From assembly GCF_000027125.1 (NCBI RefSeq), contig NC_017627.1: a stretch of DNA of 64,000 bases, one strand, 5' to 3'. This stretch comes from Escherichia coli 042 (GTDB lineage: Bacteria > Pseudomonadota > Gammaproteobacteria > Enterobacterales > Enterobacteriaceae). Positions 57,801 through 60,800 of the stretch are shown here, piece by piece. Within the stretch, counting starts at the first letter, position 1, and each line of letters begins with the position of its first letter. Made by a program: the position numbers.

Positions 57801-60800
57801 TGATGTCACGCGGAATAAACTCCGGAGCGACCTTCGGTCGTGTCTGATATTTCAGGGAGAGTTTGACTGCCGGATACGGTCCGGGCAGAGTGACATAGCA
57901 GGTCAGATCCGGCAGAGACTGAATGTCGGAATAACTGACCAGCGTCTGACGCTCCATATCCTTACCGGTCGATACCCCGTCACGTACCGGGTCAGCACCG
58001 TAAGAATACTGCTCGCTGGCTTTCAGGTGCTCTTTCTCACCAATTTCACCGGCAGCGAACTCTGCAATCTTATGGCTGGGAGAACGGAAAAAGGCACGGG
58101 TGTTCATGACGTCAAACAGCGTGGCCGCCGCTTTCTCACCGTAGATATCTTCCAGCTGGGCATAGGACTGGATACCAAACACATAACAGCCACCGAACTT
58201 ACGGGCTTCCGGCAGGATCTCCACCAGGTCCGGCAGTTTGTGTAACGTGGGTAACTCGTCACAGAAAAACCACACACGACGATTACGGTTTTCTCCCATT
58301 GCCAGCAGACCACGAATGGCAATGGACAGCCACATGGAGATCACCGGCTTCAGGGAGGCATGGGTGTCGGCATTCGACGAGATAAACAGCCAGCCGTTTT
58401 TCTGATCTTCCCGGACACCACGCATCCAGTCACGGATGGTAAAAGACTCACCGTTATGCTCAATCCCCTGCAGGTAACGGATGGCTTTCACGTAGTTGGT
58501 CAGCACAGCACGGATGGAAATCGCCGTTTTCTCAATTTTCTCTTCCACCAGGTTGGCTGCCGGTGAATTACGCAGGAAGGTACGCAGTTTTTCAATTTTG
58601 ATGGAAAGCAGTGTGTCCACCAGTTTGCTGTAGCTGCGGTTGGGGTCATTACGCATCAGGTACGCCGCTTCCGCAAAAATGGTACGTCCTGAACCCTGCC
58701 AGAACGGGTCCTCTTTTGTGCCCATCGGGATCAGCGTGTTCGCGGTATTATCAAAATCCGGCTGTGTCAGGCACTCCTTCCACAAATCCCAGGCGGCACA
58801 GCGGGCATCCAGCGGATTCAGGATTTTATCGATGGAGGGATCATAGTAACTTTTAACAAATTCCCCCGAACGGTCATAAATCACCACCATATCTCCACGC
58901 TGACGGGCGTAGTTGGCCAGACGACGGATAACTTCCGACTTACCGGCCCCGACCGTGCCGTGCAGACAGAAGTTCTGGATTTCGGAATCCCGGATAATCG
59001 GCAGGTCGCCAATCCGTATATCGGAGTCCTTGCCGTCTTTTTTCAGCATCCGGGCAACATCTTTCGGGTTTTCCGTCAGCTGACGACCACCTGTAACTTC
59101 ATTTTCGCTCTGTTGTTTACCCTGACGCCCCAGAATCCAAGAGACAACAAAGAAGGTGATCAGGCAAATAACCAGTGCCACGACAGACGCCAGAACGAAT
59201 GCGGACCATAGCTGCTCACCGCACCAGATCATATATTTATCATGCAGTACCTGGGCAGCGTTCATCCGGAAGGTTTTGCCGTAATACTGGATCTCATATA
59301 CTGGCTGGGACTTGATTAAATCCCGCATGCCTTCCAGCGTGGTACACCACCAGTAAATACAGCCGTTCACAAACGTCTGCCAGCTTATTTTTACCCATAA
59401 AATCAGACCAACGAGTATCCAGAAAAAAATAAACAGGCAGTAAAGCATGATATTGGCGATCTGGCTGAACATGCGGATACGCATGGACGCAATCTGACCG
59501 CCCTGGGTCATATCCTTTGCGTTAAAACTCATGATGAAACTCCGGGAAAATCTGGAACAGGGCAGAAAAGGATGATGTGGGGTTAATTCACAGAAACAGA
59601 CCAGGTGTACCCTGTATGCCGGTGGTGATACCCGCCTGCAGTCCTGCCGGAAGAGACCTTCTCTGTAACAATGTCAGTCAGGCGCAATACTTCAGACCAG
59701 TCACTCCCGTGCGGAAACTGGATCTGAATAAAAAGGCGTACCCGTTCACGGTGATCCAGAACTGTGTCCGGTTCATAAAAACGGCCACTGTCAGGAGAAA
59801 CACGGGACGTTTTATTGATGAGATCATACTTATCGGCAGGAGACTGCGATGACAGAGACCAGGTAATATTTTCGCCCTGATGACCATCAATACGACTGCT
59901 CCCCGGCGTCCATGCAATTTCCTGCGCACTCGCCACGATGATCTCCCTGGAGACTTCTGCCAGCTTTCTGGGTGTACCGAATACCGGTGCCAGCACACAC
60001 AGGGACAACAAATTACAGCTGACCGCTTCCGGTTTAAGCGAATTGCTCCCGGATTTTTCAGGAAAAGATATTTTTGTCAGTATTTCAGTTAATTCCTTAT
60101 GCCTGAGAGAATTAATAAAGTACATGATAAGCATCATGAGAAACAATATAACAATAAGCCCTCCGATAACCACTAAAAGGTTAGTATCAATATTATTGCT
60201 GTACAGATAGTCTTTAGTGGTCACTGTATTATCCTGTATCACCGGGGGGTATTCAGTTACAGGCTTCTCAGTAAATTGATTATTCTCACCAACATATTCA
60301 GCGATATTGTCTGATGTCATAATGACTTTCTCCGGAAGATCCCGACTTCGCCGGCAACACTTCACGGTCGCACAAAGAATTTGCACAACCGCTCAGTGTT
60401 TTCATATTTATTTCGGAAACGCCGGGAGGTGACAAAATTTATTTTGTTACATCCCGGGGTTGGACAACGAGCAACGCGAGGCGTCAGCAAGGAGGCCGGT
60501 CAGATCAGCCTCCTGACGAGGTTCAGAGAATATTTGCGATTGATTTGGCCAGCTGGTCTTCGAGAACAGGCTTCGCCTCTTCAAATTTCAGGTTAACCTT
60601 GTTCGCATTTGAGACCACACGGGTCTGGTATTTATGCTGGTTACCCGTTTCAGTACTGGTCTGAATTTTCGCACCGGATGTGCCCTGACGCAGGGCGGCA
60701 ACATTATCCGTTGTCACCGTTGCCTTAGTACGCTCTGCAATCTGTACATCCGTGATCATGGTATAGTTCACATCTTCCACCATCGCATCTGCAGCCATAC

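Follow-up and report, generated by a model that had tools for sequence, protein, structure and literature searches.

Between traT and traD of the transfer operon in a 64,000-nucleotide stretch of the Escherichia coli 042 sequence NC_017627.1 (hereafter the window) lies an open reading frame (ORF) of 245 codons plus TAA, located on the minus strand at 59583..60320. We regard it as close to certain that this ORF is a real gene, that it is the R100-type yhfA, orthologous to R100 YhfA (WP_000199905.1), and that it is widespread. It is also already known, having been catalogued since the sequencing of R100 as yhfA or as a "hypothetical protein." Beyond this identity, we favor a reading in which the protein is held in the inner membrane by one helix and would serve the TraD module from the cytoplasm; the account taken whole, from identity through topology to the TraD-module role, is put forward tentatively, at a compromise grading that falls a little below the midpoint.

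Identity and distribution of yhfA

The minus-strand ORF spans 59583..60386, and the ORF listing and translation place the start of the 245-residue product at the ATG at 60318-60320. A Shine-Dalgarno sequence, GGAG, was read on the same strand at 60330..60333, 9 nt 5' of the ATG, and alignment of the R100-type loci L004-L010 shows GGAGAAA kept ahead of the start. The variants of yhfA have in common the start M-(T/K/M)-S-(D/E)-N. The GTG at 60386 was considered as the start and ruled out, because the stretch above the ATG is non-coding and occurs also in plasmids that do not carry the ORF. The ORF listing, translation, and neighboring genes thus agree with the earlier note, which had described a 245-residue ORF with a good ribosome-binding site between traT and traD. 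The note had also given the ORF the orientation of the transfer operon and an AT-rich N-terminal third; yhfA, traT, traD, and the tra operon as a whole lie on the minus strand, and the GC content is 0.355 at 60000-60299 compared to 0.49-0.55 in the flanks.

R100 (NC_002134.1) holds the whole 990-bp traT-traD interval at 98% DNA identity, and its gene between traT and traD encodes the 245-residue "hypothetical protein" WP_000199905.1, which is 97% identical to the product of the window ORF. The gene, its length, and its neighbors are the same in both, and the differences amount to a few substitutions, including Gly in the window for Cys in R100 at residue 115. Both full-length identity and position between traT and traD place the window ORF in the orthologous group of R100 YhfA. 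At the DNA level, yhfA of the window is 99.6% identical to the copy in p120899_50, annotated as a "hypothetical protein," and the order traT-yhfA-traD, co-oriented with the tra operon, is the same in the loci L001, L002, L004-L006, L008, and L010. The R100 ORF was named YhfA, with no similar ORF in F, in the paper on pEntH10407 (PMC2762410), and entries of the family in AFDB and UniProt carry the same label. The searchable literature otherwise gave only passing mentions of yhfA or of the traT-traD ORF and no direct functional data. As to whether classical F-like plasmids hold the same gene with a known function, a question on which the earlier note had hung its view of the ORF as an addition, R100 does hold the gene, with no function known for it.

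A megablast search with the 990-bp interval matched 4,029 PLSDB plasmid records, and at least 80% of the interval was covered in 1,770 plasmids. In the other ~2,250 records the match is confined to the ~180 nt that directly follow traT, and those examined, F and p1658/97, are F-type. Intact full-length copies of yhfA are present in 1,795 PLSDB records. In F (NC_002483) and p1658/97 the traT-traD spacer is 252 bp long and holds no gene, in keeping with the earlier note, which had assigned F a short region only and called the gene extra in relation to it. Alignment of the two types of interval revealed that ~65 nt of unrelated sequence in F-type plasmids replaces ~790 nt of the R100-type interval, with no direct repeats seen in the alignment at the boundaries of this insertion-deletion difference.

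The family extends well beyond the R100-type copies. A single-sequence phmmer search against 1.84 billion representative proteins returned close relatives and fragments only and missed the Klebsiella branch. By tblastn against plasmids, relatives of yhfA were found at 27-35% identity, and a profile search added Klebsiella clusters, such as P0183 (1,543 members), and the E. coli cluster P0137 (675 members), all of them annotated as "hypothetical." Tblastn with P0183 matched 2,324 plasmid records; with P0137 as a bridging protein, family members were found in 3,541 PLSDB records, of which 3,521 are typed as conjugative.

The distant homologues are overall 23-35% identical to the window protein. 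They occupy the traT-traD slot in Klebsiella IncFII plasmids and in E. coli plasmids of another F-like lineage. The gene order is traG, a traS-like gene, traT, a 230-residue ORF, a DUF2726 gene, and a truncated traD in CP099006 (E. coli); traT, a 230-residue ORF, and traD in CP020359 (K. oxytoca); and traS, traT, the yhfA homologue, and traD in K. pneumoniae pUHKPC33-113.638kb. The slot is still kept where TraD is 82% identical to that of the window, in K. oxytoca, and where it is 41% identical, in CP099006 with its truncated traD. The homologues from Klebsiella (P0183, P0166; pUHKPC33-113.638kb) and from E. coli CP099006 (P0137) resemble window YhfA in slot and architecture and share with it invariant residues that include P139, G140, R143, D145, W154, G179, P184, Q201, L214, G229, G230, G237, and Y238. 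They differ in having 23-35% identity, a length of 221-230 residues, and a first domain beta strand that is not hydrophobic.

Because homologues hold the same slot across diverged lineages, ancestral presence of yhfA followed by loss in the F-type lineage appears more parsimonious from these comparisons than insertion in R100, which we infer rather than reconstruct. The earlier note had called the gene extra and inserted. The R100 copy at 98% identity, the 1,770 PLSDB plasmids, and the distant homologues in the same slot speak against its being inserted or unusual, and comparison of the traT-traD interval across F-like plasmids, which the note had proposed, gave a common gene that the F lineage is without and no support for an insertion. 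An intermediate state was seen in CP057785, where a partial yhfA match (33% of the query) adjoins a DUF2726 gene and vapBC.

Predicted topology and fold of YhfA

YhfA is rather probably a bitopic inner-membrane protein, predicted by the positive-inside rule to have a periplasmic acidic tail, one helix, and a cytoplasmic domain. The acidic N-terminal tail, codons 1-47 (60180..60320, minus strand), contains 2 K/R versus 8 D/E and is probably disordered and predicted to be periplasmic; residues 1-43 have an AlphaFold2 confidence score (predicted local distance difference test, pLDDT) below 50. Neither a lipobox nor a signal peptide was found on reading this acidic N-terminus. Codons 1-47 belong to the AT-rich, fast-evolving third of the gene and are replaced in P0029/P0039 and in P0103. 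The transmembrane helix, codons 48-70 (60111..60179, minus strand), has a mean Kyte-Doolittle hydropathy of 3.22 over the 19 residues 48-66, bearing out the single helix that the earlier note had reported, and AlphaFold2 models a helix at residues 46-85 with a pLDDT of ~80. The third part is a conserved C-terminal alpha+beta domain, codons 101-245 (59586..60020, minus strand), made of two beta-alpha-beta-beta units and predicted to be cytoplasmic.

The same plan recurs throughout alignment A6, which comprises 32 diverse family sequences. Its members have, ahead of the hydrophobic peak, an acidic N-terminal stretch of 36-52 residues with a mean of 2.0 K/R compared to 7.3 D/E, then one transmembrane helix, and a conserved domain of ~145 residues with 2 to 7 cysteines in the C-terminal part. 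In 30 of the 32 members, the 15 residues that follow the helix hold more K/R than the 15 that precede it (mean 3.8 versus 0.8). By the positive-inside rule applied to these helix flanks, the N-terminus is predicted to be outside and the C-terminus inside, and a cytoplasmic location of the C-terminal domain is consistent with the variation in cysteine number. The topology prediction that the earlier note had suggested as a check likewise gave one helix, N-out and C-in, with no second transmembrane segment.

A second transmembrane helix at residues 101-115 was considered and rejected, since this hydrophobic stretch is polar in the Klebsiella homologues and was modeled as a buried beta strand. 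The segment CNLLSLCVLAPVF(C/G) was weighed as a second transmembrane helix or a lipobox and set aside for the same two reasons.

AlphaFold2 produced a usable model only with A6; with the earlier and shallow alignment A2 of 14 sequences, the pLDDT was 40 and the model unusable. In the A6 model the C-terminal domain has a pLDDT mostly of 85-96 and runs as strand 102-112, helix 117-135, and strands 140-148 and 152-160, followed after a loop by strand 193-203, helix 208-223, and strands 228-233 and 236-244. All 15 invariant columns of A6 fall inside this domain.

Searches of Pfam, NCBIfam, PADLOC, and PHROGs with the single YhfA protein gave no significant match, nor did Pfam with all 32 members of A6. 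Among the anti-phage profiles of PADLOC-DB and the phage profiles of PHROGs, no family was matched at E values up to 1, and searches of PDB sequences with profiles from A2 and A6 returned nothing below E 0.79. Foldseek against AFDB50 recovered the family itself, labeled YhfA, and then uncharacterized proteins at 11-15% identity from Pantoea, Pseudomonas syringae, Enterobacter, Citrobacter, and Kosakonia. The ABM, IsdG, and NIPSNAP families recur among the weak Foldseek matches, and the tandem ferredoxin-like or dimeric alpha+beta barrel folds of these families have the same order of secondary-structure elements as the C-terminal domain of YhfA.

Selection on yhfA and its possible role

Ratios of non-synonymous to synonymous substitution (dN/dS) were estimated by the Nei-Gojobori method for the window ORF against seven other sequenced variants. 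The ratio is 0.2-0.3 overall for yhfA, ~0.2 for codons 101-245, and 0.4-0.55 for codons 1-100 where these are still alignable; for traT and traD it is ~0.03-0.12. The synonymous divergence of yhfA is like that of the flanking genes, and its non-synonymous divergence is several-fold above that of traT and traD. By these substitution estimates, yhfA is under purifying selection and is less constrained than traT and traD. Within the R100-type group the N-terminal third occurs in at least three forms, namely the R100 form, that of P0029/P0039, and that of P0103, and the C-terminal domain is alignable throughout.

Two residues of window YhfA depart from its close relatives: Gly115 (codon at 59976-59978), where Cys is nearly invariant, and Asn47 (codon at 60180-60182), where Asp is nearly invariant. 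Compared to its nearest relative, L001, window yhfA has 4 non-synonymous and 0 synonymous changes, counts too small for significance. Truncated or frameshifted copies are common in the databases (for example P0016, P0090, P0100, and P0020), and at least some of the truncated ones, such as pEntH10407 and P0016, stem from contig breaks or from tra regions disrupted by insertion sequence (IS) elements. P0016 is a cluster of 921 "YhfA" proteins of 180 residues that start at Met66; in the one P0016 contig examined (L012 1-160, GCA_026382135.1), this late start results from the contig itself starting near codon 13 of yhfA. The P0016 pattern hints that a repeat or IS element has inserted close to the 5' end of yhfA in a lineage that is common.

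These copies might be taken as signs that a once functional gene is now drifting as a decaying remnant, as might the Gly at nearly invariant Cys115 and the excess of non-synonymous changes against L001. We hold this to be very improbable. A dN/dS of ~0.2 was obtained over many independent comparisons, intact full-length copies occur in the 1,795 PLSDB records mentioned above, the domain architecture is kept down to 23% identity, and the domain was modeled confidently by AlphaFold2 from the 32-sequence alignment. Both the selection signal and the conservation of the domain contradict pure decay.

An indication of function came from expression data for pBIC1a, a Klebsiella IncFII(K) plasmid. By RNA-seq, the reads per kilobase per million mapped reads (RPKM) were 231 for traS, 282 for traT, 7 for traD, and 10 for traI, and the value for the hypothetical gene in the traT-traD slot was 8 (PMC6286996). 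Adjacency to traD, this matching transcript level, and the predicted cytoplasmic bulk of the protein weakly suggest a role in the TraD module. Since F, a conjugative plasmid, is without the gene, as is p1658/97, yhfA is dispensable for conjugation. We give limited credence to the possibility that YhfA assists the TraD/DNA-transfer module as an accessory that can be dispensed with. On this proposal, yhfA is a translated gene of the promoter-distal segment (traD-traI) of the transfer operon. Its product would act on the cytoplasmic side of the inner membrane, close to the coupling protein TraD and the relaxosome, and may tune the initiation or specificity of DNA transfer; it would be a modulator that varies among lineages, neither a core part nor an exclusion protein. 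The family would date back to the ancestor of a broad clade of enterobacterial F-like plasmids and have been lost in a lineage that includes F. An analogy may presumably be drawn with accessory subunits of type IV coupling proteins of the DotM-like kind.

The earlier note had raised instead an additional exclusion or envelope factor, which would work with TraS and TraT in the recipient role or confer serum resistance. The gene does neighbor traS and traT, its AT-rich, hypervariable 5' third recalls traS (GC ~0.35-0.39 at 61300-61800, and variable as well), and the N-terminal tail is predicted to be periplasmic. TraS and Eex-type entry-exclusion proteins are likewise small, AT-rich, hypervariable inner-membrane proteins encoded in the traG-traD neighborhood. 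However, no sequence similarity to them was seen, YhfA has one transmembrane helix and a globular domain, and in the pBIC1a RNA-seq data the gene in the yhfA slot follows traD and not traS. The ~30-fold drop in transcript from traT to the slot gene in pBIC1a is at odds with exclusion genes having to be expressed in repressed cells, and ~70% of YhfA is predicted to be cytoplasmic. Nor did YhfA resemble the known exclusion proteins: it has no Pfam match to the TraT lipoprotein family (PF05818), no lipobox, and no signal peptide, the NCBIfam search gave no TraS model for it, and a distinct traS is present at 61286-61789. By established genetics, exclusion in F and R100 maps to traS and traT. With support from position only, most of the protein predicted to be cytoplasmic, and low, traD-like expression in pBIC1a, we consider an exclusion or envelope function improbable.

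Some observations count against a partnership with TraD. At the distance of Klebsiella, dN is 0.92 for the C-terminal domain of YhfA versus 0.12 for both traD and traT, and evolution at such a rate would be no less expected of a conflict or specificity factor, or of cargo under loose constraint, than of an accessory of transfer. TraT and TraD residues 1-560 of the window are 99% identical to those of an F-type plasmid without yhfA; TraD is thus nearly the same with and without yhfA, indicating no co-adaptation and arguing against an obligate partnership. Two premises weigh in the same direction: the topology of YhfA is a prediction drawn from the positive-inside rule, and we infer from position and from the Klebsiella loci that pBIC_00031 of pBIC1a is the yhfA homologue.

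As the main alternative, it is possible, if doubtful, that YhfA is selfish or competitive cargo in a tolerant slot, serving the plasmid in conflicts and not in its own transfer, for example through fertility inhibition directed at co-resident coupling proteins or by blocking male-specific phages through a TraD-dependent route. YhfA may also be unrelated cargo, as the earlier note had suggested. The gene is dispensable, F being without it, evolution of the protein is rapid, and its N-terminal module has undergone exchange among lineages. Further accessory genes occur at the traT-traD-traI junctions, namely a DUF2726 gene and vapBC between traT and traD in CP099006 and CP057785 and vapBC between traD and traI in F, and a membrane anchor joined to a cytoplasmic domain would place YhfA by any coupling protein. 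Against this, there was no PADLOC or PHROGs match, and the exact slot is kept where TraD is only 41-82% identical, which resembles vertical inheritance with the operon more than mobile cargo. Expression at the level of the repressed tra operon would also be unexpected for a defense or competition factor that always acts. In the divergent E. coli F-like lineage (L013 4571-4939; L015 4435-5578), the DUF2726 gene, and in one plasmid vapBC, lies by an intact or partial yhfA homologue. To judge by gene content, cargo seems to be tolerated at the junctions flanking traD.

Flanking sequences and implications

The spacer between traT and yhfA contains two further elements on the minus strand. The first is a structured non-coding element at 60342..60400, consisting of a long imperfect hairpin at 60356-60400 and a short hairpin, CCGGCGAAGTCGG, at 60342-60354, the latter of the form CCGGC-GAA-GCCGG. 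This element is nearly invariant in F-type and R100-type plasmids, occurring also at L003 3097-3200 and L014 3640-3754, and in F-type plasmids it sits directly upstream of traD. In K. oxytoca the hairpins of this element persist, with compensatory substitutions, and RNAalifold gives 30 pairs, 4 of them changed on both sides. Conservation over the ~190 nt that follow traT exceeds that of the coding sequence on either side. The second element is a GC-rich hairpin, GGAGGC...GCCTCC, read at 60483..60518 immediately 3' of the traT stop and likewise conserved when plasmids are aligned; it lacks a T-run, and the terminator scan did not report it. A scan of 59400-60700 for promoters and terminators found no more sites than expected by chance, and an Rfam search of 59300-60800 gave no match. 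The ~30-fold transcript drop in pBIC1a falls in the spacer, where the GC-rich hairpin and the conserved element lie. At the point of this drop, the spacer element may attenuate transcription, serve as a processing site, or stabilize the mRNA.

Upstream of this spacer is traT (60523..61254, minus strand), an ORF taken without its upstream extension, whose counterpart in L001 and L002 is annotated as TraT. The ORF listing, with the annotation of the counterpart for traS, further placed traS at 61286-61789 and the 3' part of traG at 61804-63921, both on the minus strand. Downstream, traD (57181..59532, minus strand), identified as an ORF and from the annotation of its counterpart, begins 50 nt after the yhfA stop. 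TraT of the window is 99% identical to TraT of both R100 and the F-type, as are the first 560 residues of TraD to their counterparts in both. The traS allele of the window is R100-like, its product being 82% identical to that of the gene that occupies the R100 traS slot, and is unrelated to traS of F. This allele beside near-identical traT and traD shows, as judged from sequence identities, cassette-like mosaicism in this part of the operon.

The C-terminal region of traD holds a very long run of QQP repeats (window 57443-57700, minus strand), and TraD is 783 residues long in the window compared to 717 in F and 738 in R100. The repeat also yields odd shadow ORFs of (CCG)n and (VVA)n on the plus strand. 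Beyond traD, R100-type plasmids have traD abutting traI, whereas vapBC lies between the two in F. F-type plasmids, among them F and p1658/97, have there a 239-residue ORF (L003 5403-6122; L016 7967-8592, the latter in F), which we take to be the classical "trbH." It is exactly antisense to the annotated vapB-vapC and is probably a shadow ORF, given this overlap. Homology of YhfA to this F "TrbH" was rejected, the ORF being an antisense shadow of vapBC and bearing no resemblance to YhfA by eye.

The yhfA gene is conserved within one of the best-studied bacterial operons. It occurs on several thousand resistance plasmids of clinical importance, including those of the R100-type IncFII group in E. 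coli, Shigella, and Salmonella and of the IncFII group in Klebsiella, and its family has no Pfam or NCBIfam entry. The present analysis brings the E. coli and Klebsiella proteins together as one family in one conserved slot and adds a consistent topology prediction, a confident domain model, and evidence favoring loss in F over gain in R100. We offer as a conjecture of modest probability that the YhfA family, found in R100, in Klebsiella IncFII plasmids in the size class of pKpQIL, and in over 3,500 sequenced plasmids, is an unrecognized ancestral accessory of the F-like conjugation apparatus, working with TraD at the cytoplasmic side of the membrane or, at the same interface, against rival plasmids or male-specific phages. 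If this is true, presence or absence of yhfA would explain part of the differences in transfer between F-type plasmids and those of the R100 and Klebsiella types.

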